Assembly (NCBI RefSeq): GCF_964204645.1
Contig: NC_134030.1
Coordinates: forward strand, 17,050,110 to 17,114,109
Direction of reading: 5' to 3'
Length of the DNA stretch: 64,000 bases
From: Tubulanus polymorphus
Taxonomy: Eukaryota; Animalia; Nemertea
Below, in pieces: positions 1 to 53,325 of this stretch. The notes beneath the pieces were generated by a model. The model saw only the letters and a program-made list of their open reading frames with translations. It was not told the origin of the DNA and made no database searches. The translations under genes were made by a program, and so were the position numbers. Numbering within the stretch: position 1 is the first letter of the stretch; each line of letters opens with the position of its first letter.

Positions 1-178
1 TAAATTCATTTATATCTTTATATTTAACTAAATTTTGTGGGATTATCTTATCTAATTTATCTTGTTTTACTTTACGCCATATATTTTCAGTAGAAGAATA
101 AGTAACCGAACTCTCAGGGTTGTAATATAAATTTCTTAAATATTGTTCTTTAGTATTAGGAGTTTTTTTACCACCCAT
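1..178 (-). CDS. Polinton retroviral-like integrase, N-terminus (truncated by window edge)
   Basis: Manual translation from ATG at 178: MGGKKTPNTKEQYLRNLYYNPESSVTYSSTENIWRKVKQDKLDKIIPQNLVKYKDINEF, open to the edge. Fits the Polinton integrase N-terminal pattern L..(I/L)YY(D/N)P..S(F/Y)S....(L/I)(Y/W)..VK. The catalytic core is not in the window. Confidence 0.7.
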   Translation of the reverse strand, partial: MGGKKTPNTKEQYLRNLYYNPESSVTYSSTENIWRKVKQDKLDKIIPQNLVKYKDINEF

Positions 179-208: not shown

Positions 209-1456
209 CTAATATTGAATACTATCTAATTGTGAATTTACAATATTTAATTGTGCGTCAGATATAATATAAATGTGCATTTTAAAATTTTTGATTCCTT
301 TTTTCTTTTTCATGAATAATTGTATTCCATCTTTAGTGTTCTGTAGTTTTTTCCCACAACCATGTAATGAATTATCCTCTGTTGTTCTAAAATCTAACCA
401 TAATGCATATTTATTGCCGGTATAATAATCAATTTGATTAATATTACAATTTTCAAATGATTTTACTTTTTCATTCATAAAATGTTTTCTAATTTCTGGC
501 CATTGATCTATCATTCTCATTCCCTGACAAAATATTTTATTTGCTATTCCTTCGATAGTTATTTCTACTTTTGTTATTTCAGGATTATAATAATTATCAA
601 CCTTTATTGCGCCATTAGAATATGTTGCAATTGTAAAAAATATTAATATACCTTTAATAGATCTTCTTGGGAAGTTAATATTCTCATTAATCATTTCATC
701 ATTTGCATTAATAGTTACAGTTTTAAATTTATCAATATAATCATATAATGATGAAAATCCTTGATTGTATTGAGTTTGAATTGTGCTAGCAATATTTTCA
801 TTAGTAACTGTGTCATATTCTAAACATATATTCGATAATTTATAACCCATATCTTTAACAACGCTAGATAATACAATTTCATTAACAGGAGCAAATGTTA
901 TCTCAAATGTAATATCTTCTTGAATTGCGTATTTATATAAAGGTGCATTATTATTTATCAATTCAAAGTCTAATGGAATTTTATATTTGCTTCCATAAAT
1001 CTTTTTAATCAAATTATCTGTGGCACGAGTTACTATTGCGTCATTAGCTCCTGATCTTAATTTATTATGGTTTTCCGATTGAATACCCTGAAATATCATA
1101 TTATTTCTATTTTCTTTAGTTAACCATAAATCTTTATAATGCATAAATAAATTATAATCATCTAATGAGAAAACTGTTTCCGGACCAATCTTTATAGTTA
1201 ATTTTTTAATCAAATATCTTCCAACATTATCAACAACATAATTGTTATCATGGCCAGTTACTTTTATATCGGCTGATAAATAAATACTATTTGGAACATA
1301 AAAAGTATTTTGTGTTAATCTATGAATTCTAACATATAAAGTTTCACCAGGATTAATATTTGAAGGGTTATTAGTAATTATCTGATGTGATCTTTCTGCT
1401 TTAATAGCATTAGATATTCTAGAAATCTTAGAAGGACTTATATAACTCCCACTCAT
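209..1456 (-). CDS. Major capsid protein (double jelly-roll/hexon-like) of the Polinton
   Basis: 415 aa, beta-rich. The N-terminal KAERSHQIITNNPSNINPGETLYVRI and C-terminal ALWLDFRTTEDNSLHGCG..LQNTKDGIQL resemble invertebrate Polinton MCPs; size and position fit. Confidence 0.75.
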   Translation of the reverse strand: MSGSYISPSKISRISNAIKAERSHQIITNNPSNINPGETLYVRIHRLTQNTFYVPNSIYLSADIKVTGHDNNYVVDNVGRYLIKKLTIKIGPETVFSLDDYNLFMHYKDLWLTKENRNNMIFQGIQSENHNKLRSGANDAIVTRATDNLIKKIYGSKYKIPLDFELINNNAPLYKYAIQEDITFEITFAPVNEIVLSSVVKDMGYKLSNICLEYDTVTNENIASTIQTQYNQGFSSLYDYIDKFKTVTINANDEMINENINFPRRSIKGILIFFTIATYSNGAIKVDNYYNPEITKVEITIEGIANKIFCQGMRMIDQWPEIRKHFMNEKVKSFENCNINQIDYYTGNKYALWLDFRTTEDNSLHGCGKKLQNTKDGIQLFMKKKKGIKNFKMHIYIISDAQLNIVNSQLDSIQY

Positions 1457-1480
1457 TTATTAAACAAAAAAATTAATTGT

Positions 1481-2946
1481 TTATTTTTTATTATTTTTTT
1501 CTTGATATCTTTTTGATATCATATTCACTAACCCAAAAATAATAGCACTTACAACTGTAATTAAAAATAAAATAATATGTTCAGCAGCAAAGTTAAGAAT
1601 ATTCCCAGCAGATTTCAATATAAAACCAACAATTGATGCAATAATTCCTGGTAATGCTGCAGCAGATTTTTTAGATAGTTCCCATAAATATTTTGCTAAT
1701 TTCTTTAAACCATCCTTAACTTTATCTTGTATAGAATTATTATCATTCGGGGGTTTATCCGGTTTATTGGGAGTAGGAGTAGATTTCAAAGCATTTGATA
1801 TTGCTAAACCAATTGGTGTAAATAACATAGTTACAGCTGTTAGAATTGAAAGAATTGTTATTCCTTCTAATTTAAATAATAACTTTATTCTATCTTTCAG
1901 TGATATTTCAGAATTTGGTTTTATCAATAAATCTTTAAAAATAACTTTTAATCTATTTATATTATAATCATATGATTTTAATGATAATTTAATTTCTTCT
2001 TTTTGTACTTCTAAATTATCCTTTAAATTATTAATTTCTTTTTCTAAATATGCATTTCTTTTTTTAAATTCGATTTCTTCAATAACTTTATTATCTCTAT
2101 CTAATTTTAATTGTTCTATTTCTTTATTTTTATCAGTTAATTCTTTTTCCAAATACATAATTTTTTGATCTCTTATACTTTTATTATGCGCAATTTTATC
2201 AGATGCAAGTCTTATACTAATAATTTCTCTAATTGCTTTATCAGAAAATATATCTAAATCTTCTAATTCTTGATCTGTTGCATCAAGTAATCCATTCGGT
2301 AAAAGTTTTTCAATTGGAACTTTATTTGATTTAAGTTTACTATTTTTGGAAGTTATATTCTGTTCAGAAGTTGTTTCTGTTTCTGATTTCTTTTTGATTA
2401 TTTCAAATAATTCATTAATTCTTTGTTTAAATACGTCTATATTATCATCTATATTATCATTTCTTTTTGTGTAACATCAGTTATTTCATTACTATTACTT
2501 ATTATTTTAATTCTATCTGGTTTTAATTTTTCTAAAGTTGATTCTGATAATATTTTATTTTCATTATTTTTATAAGTGATATCAATATAATAATCACCTT
2601 TCAAACGATAATAACATTTACCATTATCTAAAAATTTTAATTGATCTGCTAAAAGTCCAACGTCTTCATCATTTATGTTAAGTTTAGATTTTTCAATTAA
2701 ATCTTCTAATTTAGGTATTTTGTTTAAATTATCTAAATCTTGTTTTACTAAATCTGGGTCTAAATTTTCAGGATTTAATTGTGATTCAGCATTTTTAATA
2801 TAATCAGGCATATTCAAATTATTATTGTATTCTGGCTCATTACCATCATTAAAACTTGTTTCATCAAAATCAGGTGGTTGTTCATCAGTTATGCCAGGTT
2901 CATCAAAATTATCAATTCCAATATCTTCTCCACCCTCTACATCCAT
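1481..2946 (-). pseudogene. Coiled-coil plus C-terminal multi-helix membrane protein, split by a frameshift near 2462-2468 (ORFs 2449-2946 and 1481-2158 are one gene)
   Basis: The frame of 1481-2158 stays open upstream to about 2461 (NDNIDDNIDVFKQRINELFE...RDQKI|MYLEK). Only the ATG at 2946 has the shared upstream motif. Hydrophobic helices GITILSILTAVTMLF and LPGIIASIVGFIL. Confidence 0.7.
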
Positions 2947-2962
2947 TTATATAATAAAAAAA

Positions 2963-3976
2963 TTAAAATTTAAAATATAATATTCCTCCGATTACAATTC
3001 CTATACAAGTTAAAGCTAATTTAGTATTTTCATGGGATTTATTATCATTATCAGTTTTAATTATATCATGTTGAATATTATCAGTTTTAATATTTTCTGT
3101 AGTATTGTAATCTTTTATTTTGGAATCATTATCCAATTTAATATTCTTAGTTTTAGTTTCTGTTGATTGAATATGTTTTTTATTTTTTTCACCTTCCATT
3201 AATTTTGGAGCAGTAATTATCTTTTTATTTATATCATTCAATCCAAATGAATTATTTATTGTTGCAGTTTTAATTAGATTATTATAACCAATTATGTTTC
3301 CCATCTTTAATACTAAATCATTAGAAATAATTAATAGATTAGGGCCTATACAATAATTTAATCTAATATGTGATTTATCTAAATAATTTTGATATCTTAC
3401 AATGTTTTCTGGAATCGATCTATTTTTATCATTATGTATGGAATCTTCAAATAATACTTTGAATTGTTTCTGCGTATCAAATGATGTATTTAAATTTCCA
3501 ATTATTGGGGATCTTGTTTCAACTTGTGCACCTAGAATACATATCAAATAAGTTCTAATAGATTGATTTATTCTTTGTATACCTGATTTTGTAAAACCTT
3601 CATTATTTTCTAAAATGAAATAAACCCAACCATTATTGTTTTCTTGTTTTAAATTATCATAAAATGTCGGTAATTTATTGAAATTTAATGTTTCTAAATC
3701 CTTAGTTTCTATTTTACCATAACCTAATTTATTACTATAGATATTATACAAACTATTAGATGGTATGGGAAGTGTTGCTAGAAATGTTATTAAGGAACTA
3801 ATTGTAACCGAACCACTTATAATCAAATAATATATAATTTTACTTTTTAGATATTTTTTCTTTTTTATCTTTAAGTCACTTTCAAATTCTAATATTTGTT
3901 TTTCTAAATATATTTTTAATTTAGTTTTATTTATATCATGAGGAATAATATCAATATTATCAACTTTATCTTCCAT
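2963..3976 (-). CDS. Polinton hypothetical protein with N-proximal and C-terminal transmembrane segments
   Basis: 337-aa ORF with the shared upstream motif; hydrophobic IIYYLIISGSVTISSLITFLA and C-terminal LALTCIGIVIGGILYF. Confidence 0.7.
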   Translation of the reverse strand: MEDKVDNIDIIPHDINKTKLKIYLEKQILEFESDLKIKKKKYLKSKIIYYLIISGSVTISSLITFLATLPIPSNSLYNIYSNKLGYGKIETKDLETLNFNKLPTFYDNLKQENNNGWVYFILENNEGFTKSGIQRINQSIRTYLICILGAQVETRSPIIGNLNTSFDTQKQFKVLFEDSIHNDKNRSIPENIVRYQNYLDKSHIRLNYCIGPNLLIISNDLVLKMGNIIGYNNLIKTATINNSFGLNDINKKIITAPKLMEGEKNKKHIQSTETKTKNIKLDNDSKIKDYNTTENIKTDNIQHDIIKTDNDNKSHENTKLALTCIGIVIGGILYFKF

Positions 3977-3995
3977 TTATTTAGCAAAAAAATTA

Positions 3996-4418
3996 CTAAT
4001 TAGTAAACTTATAAGCAACAAATATAACAATAACAGTTCCGCCTAAAATCCAAATTATCTTATATTTCTTCTGTTCATTACTTGGGGTATAATAATCTGA
4101 TAATTTAGGTTTGTATAGATGTAATTTTTCTTTATTTGTTACCGCGTTATATAAACTCATTGCATCATCGACTGATTGAAAATCTCTATGTGAAATCTTC
4201 TGATCATATAATTCTTTATTGATATAATCCATATAGTTTTGTCTCTTTTCTCTATATTCTTCTGCAGCTTTATTATATTTCTCTAACGCTAAGTTATGTC
4301 TTCTTTGTTCTCCTAATGAACTATTTTTATCAATATGTTTAAATAAATAACCACCACCAGTAAATGCTAAAGCGTTAACAATTGCTGATCCTATAATAGT
4401 TATAATTGCAGAAGCCAT
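3996..4418 (-). CDS. Polinton small membrane-anchored coiled-coil protein
   Basis: 140 aa; hydrophobic N- and C-termini around a charged helix (EQRRHNLALEKY); shared upstream motif. Confidence 0.75.
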   Translation of the reverse strand: MASAIITIIGSAIVNALAFTGGGYLFKHIDKNSSLGEQRRHNLALEKYNKAAEEYREKRQNYMDYINKELYDQKISHRDFQSVDDAMSLYNAVTNKEKLHLYKPKLSDYYTPSNEQKKYKIIWILGGTVIVIFVAYKFTN

Positions 4419-4443
4419 TTATTTAGCAAAAAAAATTACGCAT

Positions 4444-4665
4444 TTATATGGGAGGAATATATTTTTGTTTTTCCAAATAATCAATAGTTAAATTAGATAA
4501 AGTAACTGCTAATGTTAATTTTAAAATATCATTTATATCAAATCTATCAACATTAACACTTCCCATTTTGAATACTTTTTTTAATACCATTGAATAACCA
4601 ACAGTTCCAACTGATAGTAAGGCGCCATTATATAATCCAGTTATTATCCACTTATTATCACTCAT
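4444..4665 (-). CDS. Polinton small hydrophobic protein
   Basis: 73 aa with two hydrophobic helices; the ATG directly follows the TAA of the upstream gene (TAAATG). Confidence 0.7.
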   Translation of the reverse strand: MSDNKWIITGLYNGALLSVGTVGYSMVLKKVFKMGSVNVDRFDINDILKLTLAVTLSNLTIDYLEKQKYIPPI

Positions 4666-5022
4666 TTATTTATCAAAAGAATTACTATCATCAAAATATT
4701 TAGTTATCTTATTTATGATTAATTCAACATTTATTTCATTACTAGTTTCATTTGTATATATTTCAATTATTATTTTTTTAATATCATCTACAATAAAACC
4801 TTCATCTAATTCATAAAATCTTAAAGATTCTCCAATTAAATTAGTAATCTTTTCTACATTTAAAGTTTCTTTATCTATTGTTGTTTTATACTCAAATGTT
4901 GTTTCATTAGAAAATTCAATATTTTTGATATGTGTAATTACATCATTAATGTTAAATTTCATTTCTTTCTCACATTTAAAATCAAATCCAAAACATATAC
5001 TCGGTCCAACAGTTATATTCAT
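4666..5022 (-). CDS. Polinton hypothetical acidic protein
   Basis: 118-aa ORF, tightly packed, with the shared upstream motif. Confidence 0.6.
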   Translation of the reverse strand: MNITVGPSICFGFDFKCEKEMKFNINDVITHIKNIEFSNETTFEYKTTIDKETLNVEKITNLIGESLRFYELDEGFIVDDIKKIIIEIYTNETSNEINVELIINKITKYFDDSNSFDK

Positions 5023-5038
5023 TTATATAATGAAAAAA

Positions 5039-5797
5039 TTACTCTTTACATCTTATAACTAATTCATAAATTACAGGAAAGTTATTCAAATCAATTAAAT
5101 ATCCATTATGATTTCTTATTTCTAATTTAAAATTATTGAAATGTGGAATACAAGGTTTGAAATCACATTCATATAAATTATAATTTATTTGAGTTCCAAA
5201 TTGTTTGACATTTTTTAATGGTAAAATATTTAATAAACCAGAATTACAAATTGTATCTTTAGTTGCTTCAAATGTTTTTGTTGGGTCAATCAAATTGCAA
5301 TAAATATAAAAATGTGTAAAAGGTATTAAGTTTGATCTACCTTCTGCGTATGCTGTAACAATATCTGGGTTAATTCCTAACAGTTTACCTAAAGGTTTTC
5401 TTACTGTAAATTTAAATTGTTCGTCATTAGCTAACCTAATCTTTATTTTATTAGAACTATCACTTTTTAAAATTCTAATACTAAATCCGGAATCACTTCC
5501 TAATTTAGCTCGAGCTTTTCTATTAATTTCTTGTGCTAATGTATCTAAATTATATAATCCTGGTTTTAAATATAAAAAAAACCATTTATTCCTTTTTTTG
5601 TAAAAGATTGAAAAAATTAAATGTTCTAGACTTTTATCCGATACATTATAAAAAGAATTACATCAACTTATATTTACTAATTTTAAATCAACACAATTCT
5701 TAAATTCTCTATCTAATTGAACTATTAAATTACGAGATTTATAATTTGTAAGTTTTCTAGAATCAACAAATATTCTGTATTCTTTTAATTCTACCAT
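5039..5797 (-). pseudogene. Minor capsid (penton, single jelly-roll)-like gene with a premature TGA at 5663-5665
   Basis: Manual translation from ATG 5797 is in frame with ORF 5039-5293: MVELKEYRIFVDSR...VNIS*CNSFYNV...LKPGLYNLDTL...LGKLLGI...FYIYCNLID...FKLEIRNHNGYLIDLNNFPVIYELVIR. These are penton-like motifs; about 252 codons with a single stop. Confidence 0.75.
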
Positions 5798-5865
5798 TAT
5801 TTATAACATAAAAAAATTACCGCTCATCACTAAAAATTAATTTTAATAAAATTTTTCCTTAATAA

Positions 5866-7182
5866 ATGGATGAGAAGATAGCATGCAAAATTTGTGGTGA
5901 ACTTCTAAGAAAAAGTAATATGGCTCGACATATGAAAAAACATGATGAAAATTATAAACCCCCTAAACTAAACTGTCCAAAATGTAATAAATTATTCTCA
6001 AGAAATTATGTTAAAAAACATTCAGAGAAGTGTAGAATTAATGGCGCAACGGCTAATGTTGATAGTAATGACTGTAATAGTAATTCTGCCGAAGTTGAAC
6101 CTGAAGTTATTTGGAAAAGACCTTTCTTATTCTATGATAAGGATAATATAAAAGATCATTTCTGTGAGCCTTGTCGAATAAAATATAGCCCTGAAAATAT
6201 AGAAGATTGGGAGAATCATCAATTTCGTAAAGTACATATAGATAAAATTTCTAATAAATTTGAAACTGAATTCAATGAAAGAAAAAATAATTTATTAGAA
6301 AAAATAAAATATGAGAAAACGTTACCAGATAATAAAGAAACAGTTGAAAAGTTAGAAAAACAATATAATGAATTAACAAGAAAATCATATTATTGTAAAT
6401 ATTGTAAATTGATTATTACAACAAGTAATTCAAATCTACATAATAGAACAATAAAACATAAAGAAAACGTAAGAAAATACCAAGAGCTTAATGAAGATCT
6501 ATTACCAATAAATTATAAACGAAAATGTCCACAATGTAGTTATGCGACCTTAAGACAAGAAGGTACTGTGTTATTTTGTAATGAATGTGGATGGCAAAAG
6601 AATTTATTGGGTGAAGAAAAAACTAGAAATTTTCTCTTAGATCCAAAATTAAATTATCTTGATGAAATTTTTAAAATATTTTCTATAGAAGATCATACAC
6701 CAGAATATATGCAATGGCTTGAAAAAATGAAAATAATAGAAAATGAAAATGGTGAAATAACTAAAAAAGATATTATAAAAACAATTATTCCATCAACATT
6801 TAACACAAAACAAAAGAAAATGTATTTATATTTATTATTTAACGATTATTATGAAAAACCTAAATTAACAGAAGAAGATATGAAAAATATAAAAAAAATA
6901 TTCAAACAAATATTAATGTATCATTTGGAAAATAGAATAACAGATTCAATAAATTATGAATTCTTTTTAAATAAGATTGTAAATTATTTAAACATAGATA
7001 TTATAATTCCATTTGATGAATTAACAAACAAAAAGAAACAAAGAGAGCGAGATGAAATGTGGAACAAGGTAGAACTTTATTTAAATGAGAAAAATGAAAT
7101 GGAGGAAGAACCTAAACAATTAAATGAAAATGAAGAAGCCAATAGTGATTTAGATTATGATGATATTGATTTTATGTTTTAA
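5866..7182 (+). CDS. Multi-zinc-finger protein with a C-terminal VLTF3-like (NCLDV late transcription factor 3) domain
   Basis: C2H2-type fingers (CKICG..HMKKH, CPKC..H..C, CEPC..H..H, CKYC..H..H), a C4 ribbon CPQC-x13-CNECG, then PKLTEE..KKIFKQI..NYEFFLNKIVNYL..KKQRERDEMWNKV, which resembles the VLTF3 C-terminal consensus. Confidence 0.7.
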   Translation: MDEKIACKICGELLRKSNMARHMKKHDENYKPPKLNCPKCNKLFSRNYVKKHSEKCRINGATANVDSNDCNSNSAEVEPEVIWKRPFLFYDKDNIKDHFCEPCRIKYSPENIEDWENHQFRKVHIDKISNKFETEFNERKNNLLEKIKYEKTLPDNKETVEKLEKQYNELTRKSYYCKYCKLIITTSNSNLHNRTIKHKENVRKYQELNEDLLPINYKRKCPQCSYATLRQEGTVLFCNECGWQKNLLGEEKTRNFLLDPKLNYLDEIFKIFSIEDHTPEYMQWLEKMKIIENENGEITKKDIIKTIIPSTFNTKQKKMYLYLLFNDYYEKPKLTEEDMKNIKKIFKQILMYHLENRITDSINYEFFLNKIVNYLNIDIIIPFDELTNKKKQRERDEMWNKVELYLNEKNEMEEEPKQLNENEEANSDLDYDDIDFMF

Positions 7183-10100
7183 TGACCATAAGGTAATGTT
7201 TTTATACCATCATCTAAAATATGCCTTTTATCATCAAATGGATTTAAACTAGTTTTTTCAACTTCATTAATGTACATCTCATGATCTTCTGATCTTAAAC
7301 AATTCATTTTATGTTTCATTACAATTGATTTATATAAACACTTTATATAATCTTGAAATTCTATAAATTCTACAACCACATGTTTTGTTATTCCTTTTAA
7401 CTTTTTAGCTTCGTGATCTTTTGTTCTGTAACTATACATTTTACTTCTTATCCCAACAAATTCAATCATTTCATCACCCCCTAATTCATCTTTAAATTTA
7501 CCAGGAATCTTTTTATTATCATTGCTAAATAGTTCATGATCTTTGGGATAATTGCTAAAATCAAAATGATGTTTTAATGTTTTTAAGTCTTTTGTTATGT
7601 CATTTGTCTTGATTTTTAGTATGTAACTGTCGGTATTTTTTTGGATTAATGGGAACCCAGAATTGAATGTTCCATCATCTGTTGATAAATCATAAACATA
7701 ATCTGTTGGGTTATATATTTCAAATAAATCTTTAACTTCTTCTGTTAATTCTTTTTCTACATGCCTTAAATTAAAACAATTTGGTTTAGATTTAATTAAT
7801 TCTATATTCATATTAAATCCTAATGAACTGCATAATATATTTAATCCTGATATAGCAACTTTTCCTTTCTGTGCAAATGTTATCTTTTTATCCTTTGTAA
7901 ATTTTTTAGTGCCATCTGCGGCATAGAATCCAATGAAGAACCACTTTCTTAAATTATTTTTTGCATTTAATACATAATCTGGTACTATCTTTTCTTTTGT
8001 TGAAGTATTACTTTTCACTATTGCATGAATATAGAATTCATCATTATATTTTATAGCAAAATCTTTAGGATTATTCACATGTATTCTATAACATTGCGAT
8101 GATTTCATAACATCTATGATTTTGAATGTTTTATGTGAATAAACTTCTTCACAGAATTTCTTAATTCTTTCTAATAATTTTAAGTCTTGATTGCATAAAT
8201 ACCAACAATATTTTTTACCCCAAACATAATTATACACACCTGCTGAACCATCACCCAGGAAAAATCCTTTGATAAAATATTCTTTTTCTTCTAATGTTTC
8301 GGGTTCTATATTATAAATATTATCAATTATTTCATCAAATGACATATGATTCATTCTTTGGAAAAATCTTTTATGTAATAATTCATCTCCAATTTTTATA
8401 CCAGTTGGTTTTATTTCATCACCATTTCGTTTAATTAAATTATGATCTTCTGTAACATCTACAAATCCTAATTTAGTTCTAACTCTATAGATTTTCTTAT
8501 TTGTTTTATGTCTAATAATATTCTTTAATTTTTTCCATCCATTTCTTGTCCAAACATCCATTAATCCATTTATTTGTATTAATTCTTTTTCACCATATGA
8601 AATATAACATTCATTTTGTTTTGGAATTATTTCTGAAATTCTTCTTATCAATATTTTATCATTACATTTTAATAATATTGGGGTGTCAGCTGTTACAGAA
8701 TCAAAATATAATATTTCAATATGCTTTTCCCCAAAAAGTGGTTGTAAAACATTATAATAAAAATCATACATTAATAATTTTGATACTTCTAAAACAGTCG
8801 AACCAATAAATATAGGTTTATTAAATTTCATTAACGTTCTTTTTAATTTAACTGCTGTTAAATAATCTTCAAATCTTTTATTTCCTAAATGTCTAGGACT
8901 TGATTGTAAATGTCTTAATCGTTCAGAATTATTTACTAATTCAATATCATTTCTATTTCTAATATTTTCGCATGTTTTACCATAAAAACTATTATTCATT
9001 AATTTGAAGAAATCTTTTTCAAAATCTGTTTTTGATATTGTTCTCTGTTGAGTATTGAAATCTATATATTTTTCTAACCACTTCGATTGATTAAATTCAA
9101 TATATCTATGTACTTTCTTTAATTTCATTCCTTGTTTTAGATAAAATTTTAACATTCTATAATGAACAATATAATTGTATTTATTATTTTGAGTAAGTAT
9201 TAATTTTTCTGTAAAAACATGATCTTTCGGTTTTATTTTCTTCTGGTATTCACTTAAATAACTATCATCTACAGTTAAATGTTCTGGGCAATAAGGTAAG
9301 TTTCTTGTTTTAAACTTTATATTTTCAGGATATTCTAAATCAACTACAAAGAAATAACCAATTGGTGCTTCATCTTTTAAACTCGCAATTGCGCTTTCCC
9401 AATCAGTTTTGTTATCATTTTCAACTTCTGTTAATATAAAATTTTTATATGGTTGAGGTTGCATCATTGCCCAACCATATAAATTATTGGCGTCAATATA
9501 TAATAATTTATATTCATCATTTGCTTTAAAATACCTATCTCCCATAACACCACTAATTCCACCTCTAATTGATTTTTCAAATAATAAAACCATATCTGGT
9601 TCTTTTAATAAATCTAATTCTACATTTGTATATTTGAAACCACATTGCCGGGTTAAACGAGGACTAGAGTAGCAATAACAAGGATCAACATTAAAATGAT
9701 TCAAATTAACTTCTCTAAATTTTTCAAATATGTCAGCCAATATCATAACATCTGATTTTAAATATAAATCAACTAATTCGCCATGATTTTTCATCTTAAA
9801 ATGGTTCCAAATATTTAATGTTCTATTAAACACTTCGTCTTTCACATACTCCTCTTTTAATTGATCATAAAATTGATCTTTTAATAATTCTGTTACATTA
9901 AAATCATCATGTGTTTTGTAAAATGAATAAGGAATTGCACCTTTATATCTCAATAATTTAAAATCTTGTTCATTTGGATAATAATATCGAGTTATAACAA
10001 AATCATTATCAACTAAACTTTTTGATAAATTATCTAATGAACTTGCTAGAAATCTATAAGAATCTAAAAATCTAATGCAACCAAATTGAAATGAAATATA

Positions 10101-12239
10101 ATTTTCAGATGTTTTAGCTAATAGTTTAAAATCATATTTTCTTACATTTGCTTCATTCATAGCATTATATTCTTCTATTTCTTGATTAATTGCGCCCAAT
10201 TTTCCCGATAATTGTTTTATAAATAGATGGGTATCATATCCTGATAAATTATGAAATAATATTGGTACGAAATTTACTTTTTTAGCTTGTAAATTGCAAT
10301 CTTCATGAGCAGCTCCACGATATTTTGAATTCAAATGATCATGATCTCTAACTTTTTTATCAAATGAATAAAAACGTTTTTCACAATAACAACAATGAGT
10401 TGCATAATTAAAATCAATTTCATCTTCTTTTGTCATAACTATTCTTTTATTTTTGTTTAATAATTTTGCAAAATCACTTTCTAATTCAATCATTTTGTCA
10501 CAAAAATCATTAACTACATTTTCACCTCTAAAAGAAATATATTGACTTTCATATAATTCAGGATAATTTGATTTTATATAAATTCCATAAGCAGCAGCTC
10601 TTTGATGAACTTTTTTAATTGTATTTATAATTGGTGGGTCTTGAATTGTGTCTTCATTTAATTCATTTCCTTTATCCATTGATTTTAATAATTGCTTTTT
10701 GTTATATATTTCTTTTCTATCTTGATCAGTTAATTCTTTATTCAACGATTCAAAATCCCCATAAATTACAAATGGAACAATATTTTTAAATTTATGATCA
10801 GTAAATTTCAATTTATAATCTTTTTCTGTTGGCATTATTAATTTACAAAAATCTTTATTATCACATAATTCTTTATGTTTTAGTAACGCATTCTCAGTTC
10901 TAAATTTAGATAAACATTTTCTACATAGATAAATTTTATGGCTGTTAAAATCACTTTCTGTTCTAAAGAATAAATCAATTTGTTTTAACCACATATGATG
11001 TTCATTTTCATCTTTTTTGTAATATAACAAATCTATAGCATTTTCATCATCATAATATTCTGTTAAATATAAAGCTTCCAATGTATAATCTTTAATATTT
11101 TCACCTTTTGTCTTTGGTAATTGCATTAATTCGAATACATTTATTTTTAACTTATTAATTTTTTCTATTTTGGGTATCATTTTTATAGTTACTGGATATT
11201 GATCAATTTTATATAATGTTTCATATTTCCGATAATCTGTTATTCTACAAACATTTTCCTGTGTTGGATGTAAGCAACTAATAATTGACCATAGAAAACA
11301 TTTATTATCTTCATTTTGAATATTTATTACTGCTTTTGTCGTAAATGGTAATTTAATATAAGATGATGCTTTAATATCCTTTTCTGTTGTAAAGTTTGAA
11401 TCATTTTTAAACATTGTTTTACTTTTTGATGTTTTATTTCTTTTTGTATTGTAAACATTTAAATCTAAATATATAATTTCATTCAATGTTAAGCCAGAAC
11501 CCTCAAAATATCTTTCTTCAATATGACGTTTAAATCCATTAAATATTTTTTCTAACTTCTCTTTTATTTGTGTTTTTGAAATTATTTCTTCAGAGTGTGT
11601 TTGAATATTATAATTCATTTTTTCTTCTGACTTTATAAAACTTACTTTCCCAGAGATACTAATTTTTGGATATTCAACATCTGTTATCAAATCTAGTATT
11701 TTTTCTACTATTTCATTAAATTTACTATAATCTTCTATTGTTGTACCTTTAAAGAATCTAAATATAATAGCCGCAGGACCAATTTTACTATGTAATGTTT
11801 CTAAAATTTCAATTGTATCTTTTATTTCTAGTGAATCAATATAATTTCTAACATTTTCCGTGTAAGGTTTATTTGAAATGGATTTAGTTTTTGAAGTTGG
11901 TTTTTTTACTTTTTGAGGTTTATCATCGAAATAATCTTTTCCTAAAACATTATTACTCAAATTTTGATGGTGTTTTTGTGATTCGAGATGTCTGTTATAA
12001 TTCCTTTTTACTATAAATTCATTACAAACTTCACATTTTATTATATCCACATTCATATTTTCTAATCGTTCTTTTCTTTCATTGGAATTTTCTGGAGTTT
12101 CAAAATCTATTACATTTTTTATATGATTTGAAGACTTTTCATGACGCGATTTTTGAGATTTATCAATGTATTTTTTACAATATGGACAATGATATTGATT
12201 TTCATTAACATCAATTTGTTCTGTCTTATTCTCTTCCAT
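7179..12239 (-). CDS. polB: Protein-primed family B DNA polymerase (pPolB) precursor with intein; about 1331 aa after splicing
   Basis: ExoI VIYGDFES, ExoII FHNLSGYD, ExoIII YLKSDV, motif A YIDANNLYGWAM, motif B KLMNNSFYGK, motif C YFD|TDS split by the intein, and C-terminal GKFKDE/SKMY/KGI/FDDKR typical of Polinton pPolB. Confidence 0.96.
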   Translation of the reverse strand: MEENKTEQIDVNENQYHCPYCKKYIDKSQKSRHEKSSNHIKNVIDFETPENSNERKERLENMNVDIIKCEVCNEFIVKRNYNRHLESQKHHQNLSNNVLGKDYFDDKPQKVKKPTSKTKSISNKPYTENVRNYIDSLEIKDTIEILETLHSKIGPAAIIFRFFKGTTIEDYSKFNEIVEKILDLITDVEYPKISISGKVSFIKSEEKMNYNIQTHSEEIISKTQIKEKLEKIFNGFKRHIEERYFEGSGLTLNEIIYLDLNVYNTKRNKTSKSKTMFKNDSNFTTEKDIKASSYIKLPFTTKAVINIQNEDNKCFLWSIISCLHPTQENVCRITDYRKYETLYKIDQYPVTIKMIPKIEKINKLKINVFELMQLPKTKGENIKDYTLEALYLTEYYDDENAIDLLYYKKDENEHHMWLKQIDLFFRTESDFNSHKIYLCRKCLSKFRTENALLKHKELCDNKDFCKLIMPTEKDYKLKFTDHKFKNIVPFVIYGDFESLNKELTDQDRKEIYNKKQLLKSMDKGNELNEDTIQDPPIINTIKKVHQRAAAYGIYIKSNYPELYESQYISFRGENVVNDFCDKMIELESDFAKLLNKNKRIVMTKEDEIDFNYATHCCYCEKRFYSFDKKVRDHDHLNSKYRGAAHEDCNLQAKKVNFVPILFHNLSGYDTHLFIKQLSGKLGAINQEIEEYNAMNEANVRKYDFKLLAKTSENYISFQFGCIRFLDSYRFLASSLDNLSKSLVDNDFVITRYYYPNEQDFKLLRYKGAIPYSFYKTHDDFNVTELLKDQFYDQLKEEYVKDEVFNRTLNIWNHFKMKNHGELVDLYLKSDVMILADIFEKFREVNLNHFNVDPCYCYSSPRLTRQCGFKYTNVELDLLKEPDMVLLFEKSIRGGISGVMGDRYFKANDEYKLLYIDANNLYGWAMMQPQPYKNFILTEVENDNKTDWESAIASLKDEAPIGYFFVVDLEYPENIKFKTRNLPYCPEHLTVDDSYLSEYQKKIKPKDHVFTEKLILTQNNKYNYIVHYRMLKFYLKQGMKLKKVHRYIEFNQSKWLEKYIDFNTQQRTISKTDFEKDFFKLMNNSFYGKTCENIRNRNDIELVNNSERLRHLQSSPRHLGNKRFEDYLTAVKLKRTLMKFNKPIFIGSTVLEVSKLLMYDFYYNVLQPLFGEKHIEILYFDSVTADTPILLKCNDKILIRRISEIIPKQNECYISYGEKELIQINGLMDVWTRNGWKKLKNIIRHKTNKKIYRVRTKLGFVDVTEDHNLIKRNGDEIKPTGIKIGDELLHKRFFQRMNHMSFDEIIDNIYNIEPETLEEKEYFIKGFFLGDGSAGVYNYVWGKKYCWYLCNQDLKLLERIKKFCEEVYSHKTFKIIDVMKSSQCYRIHVNNPKDFAIKYNDEFYIHAIVKSNTSTKEKIVPDYVLNAKNNLRKWFFIGFYAADGTKKFTKDKKITFAQKGKVAISGLNILCSSLGFNMNIELIKSKPNCFNLRHVEKELTEEVKDLFEIYNPTDYVYDLSTDDGTFNSGFPLIQKNTDSYILKIKTNDITKDLKTLKHHFDFSNYPKDHELFSNDNKKIPGKFKDELGGDEMIEFVGIRSKMYSYRTKDHEAKKLKGITKHVVVEFIEFQDYIKCLYKSIVMKHKMNCLRSEDHEMYINEVEKTSLNPFDDKRHILDDGIKTLPYGH
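7635..8699 (-). mobile_element. Intein (355 aa) with LAGLIDADG homing endonuclease, inserted at the PolB motif C (pol-c) site
   Basis: Starts Ser (YFD/SVTADTP), block B VDVTEDH, LAGLIDADG motifs FIKGFFLGDGS and FFIGFYAADGT, block F YVYDLST, ends KN followed by +1 Thr (TDS). Removal restores YFDTDS. Confidence 0.95.
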
Positions 12240-12262: not shown

Positions 12263-12561
12263 TGGTGATGAGTGGGGATTACTTCCCCCTGTATATAACA
12301 AGCGCGCTATTAACCGTTCTCACCCAAGCCTCACAGCATCTATTTATCCGGGTACAGTTGACACGCAATCACTGTACTACTACAGTAATAGCACAGTACA
12401 GAGACTCACTGTATCGATCTATCCACGCGCAGTTGTTGTTACGCGCACTCACTGTATATGTGTGTCACAGAGCAATCGTCCGTTCTCACTAGAGCCTAGC
12501 TGTGATGAGTGGTGTCTCGACCTCTCGACCTCTGATCTGAAAACGCCATCTTCTAATTACT
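12263..12561. repeat. Probable Polinton terminal inverted repeat (partner copy outside the window)
   Basis: Non-coding and more GC-rich than the element body, with short internal repeats (actcactgtat x2, ctcgacct x2). Ends ...ttctaattact at 12561. Confidence 0.55.
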
Positions 12562-37063: not shown

Positions 37064-39660
37064 CTAAGATATCTTCGAAACCTCCGCGACTTTGATCCAT
37101 ACAAAGAAAAATCTAAATATACGACCTCCAAAGGCTCCGATGTAACGATAGGAATCAATCGCTTGTTGGGTAGGGGTACTTGCATCAAACACTATAGCAA
37201 TCTCTGACTGGGGAACTACGACTTTCAACGACTCAACGCCATCCTCAAAGACCGTCCGACACAGAAAGCAATCACTTAAACAAAGCGAATCCGCAAAACG
37301 TTGCCACTTTCGATCCAAATGAGAAAACAGACGATATCGCCCCGTTCTAGTAATCTGTCCAATATTTCTACTCGGATCAGAGTCTAACTCTTGCGCGGCG
37401 ACCATACACCTCCGGCCAACTCCCAAGGCTTCAAAATCCTGTTAGGGATTAACAGACGGAAGAGGAAATGCAAAAACAGACTGACAAACGGCATGGACGT
37501 CATCGAGGATACACACTTACGACTCAAGGCATCAGCATCCACGTTGGATTTGCCGGAAATATACTCTAAAGTTAAATCGCAAATGGCTAAACACTGTAAC
37601 CAGCGATGGCTGGTCGCATCCTGTAAGGTTAACGGATTCGAGTCCGTTTTGACACACATACATTACCGTACAAGTAGTCATTAAGGGCCTCAGACAATGA
37701 CCACTTGAGAGCCAGAAATTCCAACTTGTGGACCGGATAATTTCTCTCGATGGTTTAAGGCCGTGGAGCTATGAGTCGTAATTTTCTTTCCTGAGCAGGC
37801 CCCTAACCCACCCAGACTCGCATCGGTATGTAGTTCGAAAGGTAAGGAATAATCAACATACGCCAAAACTGGCGGTTCAGATGATAACTCCTTCAATTGA
37901 TCAAAAGTGGACTGCTGAGCCTCGGATTCCCCTTCAAAAGTTCGTTTAGTGGCTTCGCTATTTTGGCAAAACCCTTTATAAACCGCCGGTAGTAAGAAGC
38001 GAATCCCATGAAACTCAGAACTTCACTTACGGATGTGGGGGTTTTCCACGCTCTAATGGTTTTAGTCTTTTCAGGGTCAGGCTCGATACCCGCCTCGGAA
38101 ACTACGCGGCCAAGGTGAAGAACTTTCTCCTGGAAGAACGAACATTTCGACAGTTTTAAGTTTCAGGCCAGCATTTTTCAGCTTCTGGAAAACATTGTCT
38201 AACGGCACTAGATGTTCAATCGAGGCCGAAAATACGATGATGTCATCGATATAAACGAGACACTCTTTCAACGAAAGATCACCGAGGCTTCGCTCCATTA
38301 AGCGTTGGAATGTAGCCGGAGCGCCGGTAAGTCCAAAAGGCATTACCTCACACTCATAAAATCGGAAACCTGGGCCAACGTTGAAAGCAGTGTATTGCTT
38401 ATTCTCCTCGTCCATCTGAACTTGCCAATAGCTGGATTTTAGATCCAGGCAAGAAAAATATCGGGAACCATAGAGGGCGTAAAGTTGCTCGTCAATGCGA
38501 GGCAAACAATAGCGTTCTGGGATAGTACGTTTATTTAATTCCTGGTAGTGGATACAAAATGGCAGCTCACCGGTCTTCTTTCTGACTAAAACTACCGGTG
38601 ACGCAAATGCGCTGGATGACGCTTTTATAACCCCAACCTCGAGCATCATACGGAGATGGTCCCTAACCTCATCCACCATACCAGGCGGAATTCTACGATA
38701 CCGCTGATTTATCAGAGTGGTATCCGTGAGATTAATCTTATGCTCATTTAGATGAGTGTGTCCAAGGTCAAAATCACTAATTGAGAAAATAGACTGCCTT
38801 GCCCACAAGAGATTCATAAGCCTCTCCCTGGCTTCGTCCACAATCGTGGACCAGATCCATACGATCCTCTAAACTGATTTTGTCCAGCTGGCCGGGGAGT
38901 GGGAACCCAATTCCGATAGACAGGTCTTTCCGCAACCTGTTTCACGGTTTTGGAAAGCTTTTCAATTTCAGCCGAAACTTTGCAAAAGCCTCCTCCCATC
39001 CCGGGGAACCCGAACCTGGAGGTTGAGGCCTCTGAACTGGAGCCTGAACTGAAGCGATGGTTTTCCTTCCAGAAACGACGTTACCGGACTCCTGTTCACA
39101 TTCAGCCTTCCGCGCTTCCTTGACCACGTCATTATATGAAGCTTTTGTCTGAAAAAGATGGTTCTCTTCCAAAGAATAAACCTCACCGGATATCAAAGAG
39201 AACTTATCCAAGACCTGATCCATATCGGCATCTTCTCCAGCATTAAACAGAACCCCCACTGCACCCCCGCACAAAGACCTTCTCATTACCATGCGAATTT
39301 GCGTCATTATATGAAGCTTTTGTCTGAAAAAGATATCGGTTACAGCCGCCAGGCAAACACCTAATCTTCCCCATGAGGTTATCGAGATGGCAAGACCACT
39401 GACTAATGGTTTCCATTGCCTACTGCATCGAAACATAAAACTGCCGGAGACTCTCTTCCTAAGAATAAACCTCACCTGATATCAAAGAGAACTTATCCAA
39501 GACCTGATCCATATCGGCATCTTCTCCAGCATTAAACAGAACCCCCACTGCGCCCCAACGCAAAGACCTTCTCATTGCCATGAGAATTTGCGACCTGGAA
39601 TAGTTGGGATCCTTCTGGAGTGCCCTAACTTCAATTTTCCACTGCTGGAAGGTTGATTCA
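37064..39660 (-). mobile_element. Decayed Ty3/Gypsy retrotransposon internal region (PNMA-like gag, RT, RNase H)
   Basis: RT motifs FASPVVLVRKK, LDLKSSYWQ, MPFGLTGAPATFQR, YIDD (38077-38841); RNase H ELHTDAS and GKSNVDADALSR; many frameshifts; internal duplication in gag (about 39130-39600). No LTRs seen. Confidence 0.9.
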
Positions 39661-47717: not shown

Positions 47718-50700
47718 CAGACCTGCCAACCTTGTGTCTGACTAAATCAGAACAATTTCATAAATTATCAGTAATTTTTGAAGTTTTTCAGTAACCAGCA
47801 TGCAATACTAAAACACTGTTATACTATATAAATCATTTTATTAATCAACGAAAAAAAAATTGTGATTGTCAGAACAATTAATACTGTAATAATTGATTCC
47901 CGGCAAATAAAAACAACTGAGACAAAACCGCTGCAAATTGATTAGCAAATACATCTTTTGAAAATTATCATATAAATTGTTCAACTTTCACGGACAATTG
48001 AACATTAATAAGCATAATACGATTATCGTTTCGATAAAGCTGCCGCTGTAGCCTTCTTAGCTTTCTCTAATTATTTCACGCTTGGATCATACTCATGACA
48101 AACAATGCCTTGAGCTTTCATGATGAGCAAACTTTCCAATGTCTTTTGTCCTAATGACGCTCTGAAGTCATTTCGATTCTTCCTGACGATACTAAAAATT
48201 CTCTCGCACTGCGCATTGGAAAATTCTCTCGCACTGCGCATTTGAAACTGGTATCAACAACACTTGAAGCATCACCCTGCTTTAAATAGTAAACCTGCAG
48301 AGAAAATATAATTTGGTGGATAAATTTATATTCTATACAACCAAGTTTCTCTACCCACTGTTTATGGATTATAGTTTTACTGTACACCTACATAAAACAT
48401 GTAGGCTTATAATCTAATAACACAGAAATAATTTTACGAGTAAACCCACCTCGTTGAACCAGTGAAGTCTTTCATTGTAGAAATAATCTTCCACTGTTCT
48501 TCAGCAGGCCGTTCTGTAGCACCGGCTGGTGAAGCCACAAAGAAATCATTAGGCAATTCTGCATCCATGACTGTCTGGTAGTCTAAGAACTCCATTTCCA
48601 GTAAATCCCGCTTATCATCTTCAAGCATGCAGGGGAATCTGTCAATGAAGTATTTCATGTCAAAGTACTGAACTTCACCCCTGAGCTTCACATCTGCCAC
48701 CTGGAAAGAGGAAAAGGGTCCATCTAATCACTTTGCAGTCATGATGCCTTATACAATGTATACTGACTGCACGGTTTTTTGATTTACAATTATAAAAGAA
48801 TATTTCCTCCCTGATATACTGCATTTAAATACCTTTGCATGTAGCCAAAGAGGCTCCTTAGCAGGATTGAATTTTTTCACCATGTAGTCACACGCCGCTT
48901 GGTAAAATGCCACAACATTTTTAAAAAACAACTTCTCTGTATCAGCGTTCACTGCATCTAAATATTTCCGAGTGTCATCTCCAATGGAAAGCTGGGCCTT
49001 ATCTTTTATGTTGTATCTAGATTTGAAATCTGCTTCCATTATGTGACCATGCATAGTAACTTGGGGCTTCACAAAACAAATAAGAATTGATTTAAACAGC
49101 CTTACAATAACCCTGTATATCTTGTGGATTTAACTCGCATCTGGCTGCAGGTATTCACCTGCGACTTCAAAGACCTGCAATTAAGAAAATGAATATTGTG
49201 CCCATTAAGTACCTCTAAGTTATTTCTGGGTTTCTATTTTGTGCTGTACTTTTAGCCAGACTGACCACCAGGCCAGGCAATTTTAATGTGTCTTTTAAAG
49301 TGCATGAATAATCAATCCTTTAATTAAACTTACTGAAATAGCCTTGCAGAGGAATGCACTGTACACCTTTGCTGTGCGCCGCTTTAAGAAGGAATACAAC
49401 TGAGTCTTTATTGATGCGGCAAAGAGTGGTATATCATCATCATTACCATCCCATTCTTCGGCATACCGATCATCATCACCATCATCGATTTCACATTCGG
49501 CAGCGAAAAACAGTTTCAAAGCTTACCACTGTTCAAGGAGGCGCTTTAATGCAGGTCCCATACTAAGCCATCGGGTGGCCACATGCTTCTGCATTTCATG
49601 TTCTGGTAAATCGCATGACTTTTGGAAAGCAACAAATCGTTGGTGTCTTCGTACCAGTGAAACAGACGGAGGATTTTTGTCGAAATCAAAGACATCCTGA
49701 AAAAAAAGAATAATCAACACTCCCTTAAGTTGACGATAAAATATAATTCTATGAAAAGTTACCAAACTTAGGCTTACCTTTATTGTGTTGATTGCTTTTT
49801 TGGTAGCCAGGTGTATGAGACGGTTGACACATCCTGCAAGGTGGACTTGGTTGTTTTTCTCTCTCACAAATTTTATAACACCTTTATGCTGTTCTGTCAT
49901 AACGCTACAATTATCAGACACCAATGACAACAGCCATGACCAATCAATATCTTTTTTTCCCAATTCCTGAGCTTTTACATTATATACAGCCTCTCCCGTA
50001 TGACTTTCATTCCAGATAGGATTACAGAGTAGTCTTGAACAAGTATTGAGGTTATTATCGATGTATCGCACTACAATGGGATAATACGTATCCGTTTTGA
50101 CAGTAGACCCATCAACTCCAAGGACAAATGGTTGATTACGCAAAAAGTTAGTGTTTGTATCTGAAATATCATCTGCTATGGCATTTGCAATATGGGTGGT
50201 TTTTTAGTTCTACCACAAGCGTACTTTTCAGCAGCAGGATGACCTGGGAACATCTTTCTAAACAAATCTCCGGCATGATCAGCAGCTGCAAGTGCAATGT
50301 TGTGTTCAACTAGAAATGTTGTAAATAGCGTCTCAGCCCGGATAGCGTCTAAGTCAAGACCAGACGATGCTGGAGTGAAAAAAACGACTTATCTTACCTG
50401 TTTGGTTCAAGTCCAGTATAGCGTGGAATAGTTCCCCGCTCAATGATACATTTTTAGAAAAGGAGTAATTCGGCTGCGTACTTTTCAAGACAAACCGACA
50501 TACCGACGAACCGACGAACCGACATACTCGTATTCCCTCGATCCAGCCACGGGTAATCCACGGAAAAACCCTGTCCCTCGATCCTAGCCACATTATATAA
50601 GGGTAATCCACAGAACCACGCAGCCCCTCGATCGCCACATTATATAAGGGTAATCCACGCAACCACGCAGCCCCTCGATCCCAGCCACTTTATATAAGGG

Positions 50701-53325
50701 TAATCCACGCAACCACGCAGCCCCTCGATCCTAGCCACTTTATATGAGGGAAATCGGCGGGTTATCCACGCATATACCCAGCCCCTCGATCCTAGCCACT
50801 TTATATGGGGGTAATCGGCGGGTAATCCACGCATATACCCAGCCCCTCGATCCCAGCCACTTTATATAAGGGTAATTCATGCACCACACAGCCCCTCGAT
50901 CCCAGCCAATTTATACAAGGGTAATACAGGTACATACCCAGCCCCTCGATCCCAGCCACTTAACATAAGGGTAACCCACGCATCACGCAGCCCCTCGATC
51001 CCAGCCACTTTATATAAGGGTAATCCACGCACGGATTTGTCGGTTTGTCGGTTCGTCGGTATGTCGGTATGTCGGTTCGTCGGTTTGTCGGTTCGTCGGT
51101 TTGTCTGTATGTCGGTTTGTCTGTATGTCGGTATGTTCGCACGTCCCTATGGCATAATGTCGTAAGATTCAATCAGTCCAATATTGGCGGATTAATTCCA
51201 AATACCAGTCCAATGTGATAAGTCCCTGCTGGAACTATTTAATGCTATAATGGACTTGAGCCACATGTTTTTGCGTTAGTCTTATGTTTTTTTCGTCTCC
51301 AAATGACGCTGTATGTCAGTTATACCGCCGTGCGCTATGTTAATAGACGGACGCCGGGCGCCCGGAGGACGTCCCTTTGGTAAACGTGTATATGTGGATA
51401 CTACGAAGTGTCTTCTTAACCGATTCTGACTAGCTGACAAAGTCAGAAAAAATGACGTCACTTGACGTCCGGTTTGAAGTTCATGGGGAAATCGGAAGTA
51501 GAATTACGTCACGCTAAAATCCGGCATTCCACTAACTAAAATACGGTAACTTATGGATCGGGTTATTTGAGAATGTATTAATTTCATGAAATTTCGAACA
51601 AGATTGGGTCGATGAATAGTTTAACAATGAACCGCGTTGATCGATCGAGTTGAAAATAGCTGAAATTCCCTTAGCAACAGGAGCGAATTCATAATAACAA
51701 AACGCGGCCGCGGCCCGGTGCCACGCGGTTCGGCGCGCAGGTTCGAATCCCGGAGAATTACGCTCTCGCGCCCGCAGCTGTCATTCCCAGCCGCGTCACT
51801 GAAATACACTTTTTAATCAAAAGTAATGACCCTAAAAACTGCGGTGAGAGTCGCGTTAGAGTCGTAAAATTTCTCGGCCAGCGCGGCGGCGGATCGGCAC
51901 GGCGTAGTCTCGCTCTCGAGCAGCAGCAACAACATCGCGGTCGGCAAAAACATTAGTCTCTGCCCCTTCTTCACCAAGTAAGGAATTCGGAACCGCTGGC
52001 CGCGTGCACTGCTTAATTTGAACCGTATTCCCGGCGGATTAGAAAGAAATGCATATTTTTCGCAAGAGAAATCAATTTTTGTACTGACATTCGCATTTCC
52101 TGCTAATTCGAGTTTTTTCTAGCAGAAAATAATTTTCCGATTTGTGCGTTTCAACGAGTATTCGATTTTTTTCTTTTTGAAGGCAATTAAGAAATGCGTT
52201 GTAATCTTCTCATCTTCCTTTTATTTCCAAATGGAGTTAATTTCTAAATTAACTACCAGGTCAAAATTCTTCAATATTGCAAAAACCCCTCTCAGTTTCC
52301 ACCATAGAAATGTCATTGGTTACATTATGGTTTCACAAAGAGTTTTAAACCATTCAAAAATGACACTTAATCTAAATCGAAAGAATTATCTTTTTAGCAG
52401 ACAGTGGTACCGAGACCTAATTTATAAGAAATTTTTCAAGTTTTTTTCTCGCAAAAATTAAAATATTAAATTTCATTTGATCTTATAATATAAGATTAAA
52501 GAATTATGAGGTTTGATTCATTTCTGAAATTTGGGCTTATAATATATCAAGCCCAAATTTCAGAAATGAATCAAAACTTACAGTTACAGAGTTACAGTTT
52601 CATCTTCTTTCTTCCCACCCCTTAACTCGAGCATTAATTTTAAATTTTCCAAGTTTTGACTAAGAATTGATTTAATTTCTTCATTAATTCATTGCTTTGG
52701 GTTAAACAACAGTAAAATTTCAATATAAAATATTGGAGTTGATTCTCTTTCCAGTTTCATTAACAACATTTAAGTGTGTTCCTTGTCACTGACAATATTT
52801 TGAGTGTTTTCGACTTCGTTACCCCGTACTTGAGGTTGTCCCCAATCGCTTCAATCATTTCTTACTATGAAAAATTGAATCAAGCTGTGACGAGGCGTCC
52901 GTCACTTAGATTTCATCTATTACATATTAATTTAATTTGTTTATCATCGACCAAATAAAGCAAAATCGTTATTACAAAAAATACTGCTTTTGCAAGCAAC
53001 GTTGATATATGTTACAGCAGATGCGCTGTTGTGTTGTGCTGTATAGTAAGGCGCTCGCGCAATGTATAGGTTGCCACGGTGACAGCCGGCGCCAGGCGCG
53101 TGTATGTCAGCTCACACCAGCGGTCTGTGTACACAAACTGCTCGCGTGGCGTGCCGATAATCAAATCATCTTTCGTCATTTTTAAAGAATATCGTAACGA
53201 CGCTAGAATTTTCCGTAGAACGTAATGAACATAAAATCGTAATTTTGAACACCCAATCGTAACATCGTAATTTGTAATGTCAATCCGTAACGATTACGGG
53301 AAAATCGTAACAGTTGGCAGGTCTG
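47718..53325 (-). mobile_element. hAT-superfamily transposon, 5.6 kb, 6-bp TSD, decayed intron-containing transposase
   Basis: TIR cagacctgccaac / gttggcaggtctg; TSD agaaag on both sides. Fragments LGVDGST, SDNCSVM, GCVNRLIHL, KHVATRWLS and a BED-like HLETKKH. Confidence 0.85.
50488..51148. repeat. Minisatellite array (about 50-bp unit, about 10 copies) flanked by inverted 8-mer microsatellite arms
   Basis: Unit cagcccctcgatcccagccactttatataagggtaatccacgcaaccacg; left arm (ccgac[a/g]aa)n-like, right arm (tt[t/c]gtcgg)n-like; lies inside the hAT transposase. Confidence 0.85.

Follow-up and report, generated by a model that had tools for sequence, protein, structure and literature searches.

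A zinc-finger fusion protein with a divergent VLTF3-like domain in a Polinton whose genes carry poxvirus-late-like promoter motifs

Results

Architecture of the element and its fusion gene

The window, a 64,000-nt stretch of contig NC_134030.1 of the nemertean Tubulanus polymorphus, holds an AT-rich element (about 24% GC inside, 33–47% past its terminus) that ends at 12533 and whose left part leaves the window inside a presumed integrase, 59 aa of which are visible before the edge (Table 1). The Polinton context proposed in an earlier, sequence-only reading of this DNA was borne out by a protein-primed DNA polymerase B (pPolB), a capsid-like gene, a minus-strand structural block and one terminus common to a related element in a second locus, L004. 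The Capsid_N match on 209–1456 reaches E 0.0095 only, and the gene at 5039–5797 is termed penton-like from its position and size rather than from a match. Outside L004, pPolB is 24–39% identical to its counterparts in 26 IMG/VR loci. The visible part of the element lacks an RNA polymerase, and no VLTF1, VLTF2 or G8 partner could be identified there. Its intergenic gaps measure 16–30 bp. The window copy is decaying: the penton-like gene has an in-frame stop, and one gene (1481–2946, minus strand) is split in two by what looks like a frameshift near 2449–2476. Open frames persist in the fusion gene, in pPolB and in the capsid gene. Another Polinton fragment, L002:1-9034, carries an ATPase, a protease-integrase fusion and a finger-bearing pPolB.

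The fusion gene encodes a protein (P0001) without internal stop, whose four N-terminal zinc fingers precede a C4 ribbon and a helical core, with an acidic tail last; the interval 6520..7090 named earlier corresponds to the VLTF3-like half only. Divergent orientation to the structural block was confirmed (68 bp separate the starts of the fusion gene and the penton-like gene), and the 3′ end overlaps the pPolB stop codon, tail-to-tail. The description of this gene as the only one on the plus strand holds for the visible 12.5 kb, where it is the sole ATG-started plus-strand ORF of at least 100 aa, and cannot be extended to the whole element, which continues past the left edge of the window.

Table 1 Features of the Polinton element in the window (positions counted from the first letter of the window)
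Feature	Position	Strand	Evidence and remarks
Integrase start (presumed retroviral-type), cut by window edge	2..178	-	Same promoter motif; by-eye resemblance to L002 integrase N-terminus
Structural block	209..5797	-	Major capsid 209-1456, five further ORFs, penton-like gene; promoter motif at each gene start
Poxvirus-late-like promoter motif of fusion gene	5847..5868	+	T-run, spacer, TAAATG overlapping start codon; 88.6% identity over 35 nt to same site in L004
Zinc-finger/VLTF3-like fusion gene (P0001)	5866..7182	+	438 aa, open frame; full-length homologs P0002 (47% identity) and P0003 (35%)
Fingers 1 and 2 (aa 7-26 C2H2-like, aa 37-56 C2HC)	5884..6033	+	Pattern; PDB CTCF fingers E 7.8e-5; ligands kept in P0002 and P0003
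Finger 3, U1/matrin-type (aa 100-124)	6163..6237	+	Pattern; conserved in P0002 and P0003; low pLDDT in full-length model
Finger 4, U1/matrin-type (aa 177-198)	6394..6459	+	Pfam zf-U1 E 4.6e-7 at aa 173-205
C4 zinc ribbon, aligns to A2L ribbon of entomopoxvirus VLTF3	6526..6588	+	Four Cys invariant in 8-row alignment A4
VLTF3 helical core, predicted cyclin-box/TFIIB-like fold	6637..7092	+	hhalign probability 95.9, E 5.8e-9; Foldseek; weak VIA-align Z 5.6 to TFIIB
Protein-primed DNA polymerase B (pPolB)	7179..12239	-	Two N-terminal U1-type fingers; same promoter motif; 70% identity to L004 polymerase
LAGLIDADG intein, 355 aa	7635..8699	-	Polymerase motif C; boundaries by comparison with L004, which lacks the intein
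Element terminus	12515..12533	.	19 nt identical to end of related element in L004

A divergent VLTF3-like domain

Judged by sequence comparison and predicted models, residues 215–410 of P0001 are a true, divergent homolog of VLTF3 (poxvirus A2), as the sequence-only reading had suggested, with backing from phmmer, an entomopoxvirus profile, hhalign, the ESM Atlas and Foldseek. Neither Pfam Pox_VLTF3 (PF04947) nor A2L_zn_ribbon (PF08792) matched P0001, P0002 or P0003, and the protein was filed as a divergent homolog and not as a Pfam-defined member because the curated PF04947 cut-off was not reached; the profile match that had been anticipated was obtained by profile–profile comparison of the domain with VLTF3 (hhalign, Table 1) and not from Pfam. 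A phmmer search over 1.84 billion proteins returned four matches. P0005 (phmmer E 1.4e-4) is itself Pfam-positive (Pox_VLTF3 1.3e-24, together with the A2L ribbon) and has four relatives, three of them named entomopoxvirus VLTF-3 and 60–63% identical to it; P0004 and P0008 are 281-aa proteins with C-terminal VLTF3-like helices (phmmer E 6e-6) and a different N-terminus. A five-sequence entomopoxvirus profile scored the domain at 31.9 bits, compared to 8.2 bits for the best of 2000 shuffles. An artefact of composition was ruled out by these shuffles, by the reversed sequence (−4.4 bits) and by the finding that no AT-rich ORF beyond the three fusion genes reached inclusion. Furthermore, the ribbon (ligands C221/C224/C238/C241) lies N-terminal to the core, collinear with entomopoxvirus VLTF3 at ~24% identity over the domain, and the eight-row alignment of ribbon and core contains 17 invariant columns. 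The core motifs quoted earlier are present (PKLTEEDM.. at aa 332; W399).

In the ESM Atlas, 27 of 30 matches to residues 215–410 are Pox_VLTF3 clusters (best 0.96, 215/256 features). Foldseek with the domain model (pLDDT 81.8) likewise ranked VLTF3 models first, the top two (BFVD) being poxvirus proteins with TM 0.63–0.67 and E about 4–6e-6; among 12 matches at E ≤0.001, seven are named late factor or VLTF3, three are unnamed and two are named otherwise. The full-length model agrees, and both models were built on alignments containing entomopoxvirus rows (1/5 and 5/8), so that the Foldseek result is not independent of the sequence evidence. No solved VLTF3 was found among PDB sequences. Compared to solved structures with VIA-align, the core gave TFIIB/cyclin boxes in most top rows, all with weak Z, and the best (TFIIB, rmsd 3.1, 90 aligned) has a Z within the background of the tool. 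A 705-aa Moumouvirus protein named 3'-5' exonuclease (A0A2P1ELL0), ranked fourth by Foldseek against the VLTF3-like model (E 1.4e-5), is possibly another VLTF3 fusion, as far as model comparison goes.

Several further searches bound the distribution of the family. A word-index search with residues 215–410 gave no significant match among 758 candidates; the profile of alignment A4, run over 5584 candidates of 107–399 aa, recovered five entomopoxvirus-type rows only and no stand-alone member of the fusion family; no relative was found in phages or in IMG/VR; and a PF04947 search over seven of 28 entries gave one match, in a giant-virus bin and on another contig.

Zinc fingers resemble those of the element's own polymerase

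All four fingers claimed in the sequence-only reading were located by pattern. Finger 1 has the spacing Cx2Cx11Hx3H, and fingers 3 and 4 are of the Hx5H, U1/matrin-like type. All four are similar to the fingers at the N-terminus of pPolB in this element. Two fingers with the Cx2Cx11Hx5H spacing of finger 4 open the polymerase in the window, in L004 and in L002, and over 39 aa finger 4 shares 41% of its residues with the leading finger of the L004 enzyme. The fingers were therefore likely drawn from the element's own finger pool or from Polinton polymerases, and because of this resemblance the earlier proposal that added fingers "retarget" DNA binding is left unsupported. Fingers 3 and 4 are separated by 50 residues, and the tandem finger arrays that read DNA are not spaced so far apart. 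The same pair shows a weak match to the dsRNA-binding protein ZFa (E 0.021). Among the 20 VLTF3 proteins collected from Megaviricetes, none has a finger array, two pattern matches there coinciding with the ribbon, and an ESM Atlas search with residues 1–214 returned leads only, all below 0.9.

The fusion is conserved and forms its own lineage

The identical fusion layout recurs in two other loci, L004, which encodes P0002, and L005; P0002 (with cluster mates P0006 and P0007) and P0003 have four fingers, ribbon and core, all as in P0001. In L004 the gene again lies tail-to-tail with pPolB, in an element ending in the same 19 nt as that of the window, and L005, a 1.7-kb locus, shows no neighbouring genes. 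Identity between P0001 and P0002 is evenly spread (26/55 in fingers 1–2, 77/155 in the core), and since three intact lineages persist at 35–47% identity, selection on the fusion protein is probable.

A 28-row tree joined the three fusion domains in one clade (98/93) that falls on the entomopoxvirus side, apart from the 20 Megaviricetes rows (100/99). A 20-sequence Megaviricetes profile gave no reported match to P0001, whereas the entomopoxvirus profile matches; together with the searches above, the nearest similarity of the domain is supported as poxvirus-like. The family nevertheless sits on its own long branch, with a path of 3.41 both to P0005 and to L154, the nearest Megaviricetes row, in a tree that has long branches and odd composition in its entomopoxvirus rows, holds no asfarvirus, chordopoxvirus or PLV rows, and excludes P0004 for its partial homology. 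The comparison with NCLDV VLTF3 thus resolved a fusion clade and named no donor: the notion of a gene "captured" from a given source is left unsupported by this equidistance, and a poxvirus donor of the domain is not supported by the tree.

Element genes carry a poxvirus-late-like promoter motif

The promoter claim was strengthened by counting: nine of ten gene starts read TAAATG, compared to 25 of 489 (5.1%) other ATGs (P 2e-11). This count omits ORF 1481-2158, in which the first Met probably lies inside the frameshifted gene; an automatic count keeping it finds TAAATG at 7/8 ORFs of at least 100 aa. At all ten gene starts position −13, ten bases 5′ of TAAAT, is a T within a T-run preceded by TAA, and the T-run accompanies eight of the nine TAAATG gene starts, compared to five of the 25 other TAAATG sites. 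Published accounts of vaccinia late promoters (PMC11980589, PMC5294985) place TAAAT(G) across the start codon and a conserved T ten bases further upstream, and the putative promoters of the element match this consensus position by position. The motif also stands before the fusion gene of both L004 and L005 and before pPolB in L004, and between the window and L004 it is more alike than coding DNA, which is 68–70% identical (Table 1).

In L002, TAAATG stands at 7/7 ORFs with a weaker T-run and no VLTF3 within the 9-kb fragment, so that the motif need not depend on the fusion gene. Across 25 other pPolB loci, only 16 of 252 ORFs have TAAATG starts; these loci are metagenomic and distant and do not represent animal Polintons at large, among which the motif may be common. 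Other roles were considered and rejected. Stop-start coupling as a general cause fits the 4666/4665 junction only, and the fusion gene and pPolB lack a tandem gene upstream; a terminator role for the T-run, or a polyadenylation role for AATAAA, was rejected likewise. Depletion of TTTTTNT was not significant in any of eight genes, and a motif scan of IMG/VR (at least two contigs) was uninformative.

Discussion

The fusion protein resembles poxvirus VLTF-3 (vaccinia A2; PF04947 and PF08792; nearest entomopoxvirus VLTF-3) in its collinear C4 ribbon and helical core and in the TAAATG/T-run promoters beside it; it differs in its four fingers and acidic tail, in lying below Pfam detection, and in being encoded by a Polinton that has no RNA polymerase and no recognised VLTF1 or VLTF2.

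VLTF3 in polintoviruses is already on record. Homologs encoded by small, integrating genomes of Preplasmiviricota are described for coral polintoviruses (PMC11131425, which cites Krupovic and Koonin 2016), MELD viruses (PMC8502044), Zephyr PLVs (10.64898/2026.06.19.733378) and Tetraselmis PLVs (10.1101/2025.10.09.676808), although the available parts of these descriptions name no zinc-finger fusion, poxvirus-like affinity or promoter match, and one homolog is called mimivirus-like. Entomopoxvirus-associated PLVs (PMC11296320) similarly tie Polinton-related elements to poxviruses, in a main text whose available portion does not mention promoter, TAAAT, VLTF or transcription. The accessible text of 10.64898/2026.07.28.741278 concerns CroV-like motifs only, and nothing relevant was found in that of PMC5499653, 10.64898/2026.10.13.758929, PMC12945077 or 10.1101/2024.03.23.586382. 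VLTF3 in Polintons is thus already known, and what we did not find described, in a search of openly accessible main texts, is the four-finger VLTF3 fusion or the position-exact match to poxvirus-late promoters. Mavirus and EMALE virophages likewise place a single helper-type late motif before nearly all genes, polymerase and integrase included; these are lavidaviruses with a CroV motif, whereas the window element, a Polinton, pairs a poxvirus-type motif with a late factor of its own, and its dependence on a helper is putative.

We favour a reading, at a probability of roughly 45%, in which a helper virus with poxvirus-type late transcription would act first and the element's own factor would add positive feedback. 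With no RNA polymerase in the element, the transcription machinery would be borrowed from a co-infecting large virus, and transcription would start inside TAAAT, as in vaccinia, given the short intergenic gaps and the overlap of the motif with the start codon. The fusion protein cannot be the first switch because its own gene carries the same promoter class; the late factors of the helper would switch it on, after which it would in turn, by feedback, draw the polymerase towards the element, with its fingers anchoring it on element nucleic acid and not reading a new sequence code. Helper-type promoters are described as deciding virophage reactivation (10.1101/2025.10.09.676808), and maverick-polinton-related elements as occurring in entomopoxvirus occlusion bodies (PMC11296320). 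On a more tentative footing, this integrated lineage, probably of animals, may consist of dormant virophages of a poxvirus-like virus that commandeer helper RNA polymerase with a finger-tethered late factor of their own. If true, the element would encode a satellite transcription hijacker, and its promoters would be a sequence signature predicting the helper class of endogenous Polintons.

The helper reading is weakened by viruses that lack RNA polymerase, keep VLTF3 and are thought to use the nucleus (PMC11253617, 10.64898/2026.08.29.747986), an observation that we count against it. An autonomous nuclear mode, in which a TFIIB-like factor would bring host RNA polymerase II to the TAAATG promoters without any helper, draws on these mriyaviruses and ariadnaviruses, on the TFIIB/cyclin boxes among the best PDB folds for the core (weak Z) and on the likeness of fingers 1–2 to CTCF fingers. 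We nonetheless consider it unlikely: the fusion gene sits under a promoter needing its own activation, the overlap of motif and start codon leaves no room for a Pol II 5′ UTR, and all listed ariadnaviruses and many mriyaviruses also keep VLTF2, which was not recognised in this element.

Less likely still is the dominant-negative role that the sequence-only reading had offered beside activation, in which an A2 mimic would tie up the VLTF2 or polymerase of the helper, dampen its late transcription and protect the host while the element used helper factors. The strong divergence from all sampled VLTF3 would suit such a decoy, as would a late-type promoter that places its production in the helper's late phase, but general poisoning would silence the element too, all of whose genes have late-type promoters, and the ribbon and core are complete and conserved, invariant columns included. 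Finally, a VLTF3 fold repurposed for RNA binding, replication or packaging with pPolB, with TAAATG a general trait of the Polinton group unrelated to the protein, seems improbable, since the pPolB-like U1/matrin-type fingers 3–4 with their ZFa match, the linkage to pPolB in both loci with context and the motif in L002 without visible VLTF3 are set against collinearity over the whole VLTF3 length and co-occurrence with the promoter class that VLTF3 serves in vaccinia.

These alternatives bear on whether an integrated Polinton lives as a nuclear virus in its own right, as a transposon or as a satellite of a larger virus, and with a late-consensus promoter at every gene beside a late-factor homolog, helper dependence of a Polinton becomes testable. 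Being invisible to Pfam, the family would be missed by marker screens that use VLTF3 as a giant-virus signature or count VLTF3 in Polintons.

Additional observations

The pPolB intein lies between Asp and Thr of motif C, with Ser as its first residue and Lys-Asn as its last, at what is presumably the site used by giant-virus PolB inteins, and to our knowledge inteins are unusual in elements of animal genomes. Its Pfam matches (Intein_splicing 1.7e-7, LAGLIDADG_3 2.2e-4) both fall under curated cut-offs, and two phage records match it weakly (about 26%). The intein-free polymerase of L004, close as it is, suggests that the intein was gained or lost recently. Insertions of homing endonucleases into polinton pPolBs have been mentioned (PMC11071308).

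On the host side, the minus-strand frames 37690–39481, 48749–50203 and 57559–59629 look by eye like decayed Gypsy reverse transcriptase and hAT-type transposases, and 50488–51170 and 55121–55800 hold an 8-bp tandem array with an inverted partner and a nested inverted-repeat element.
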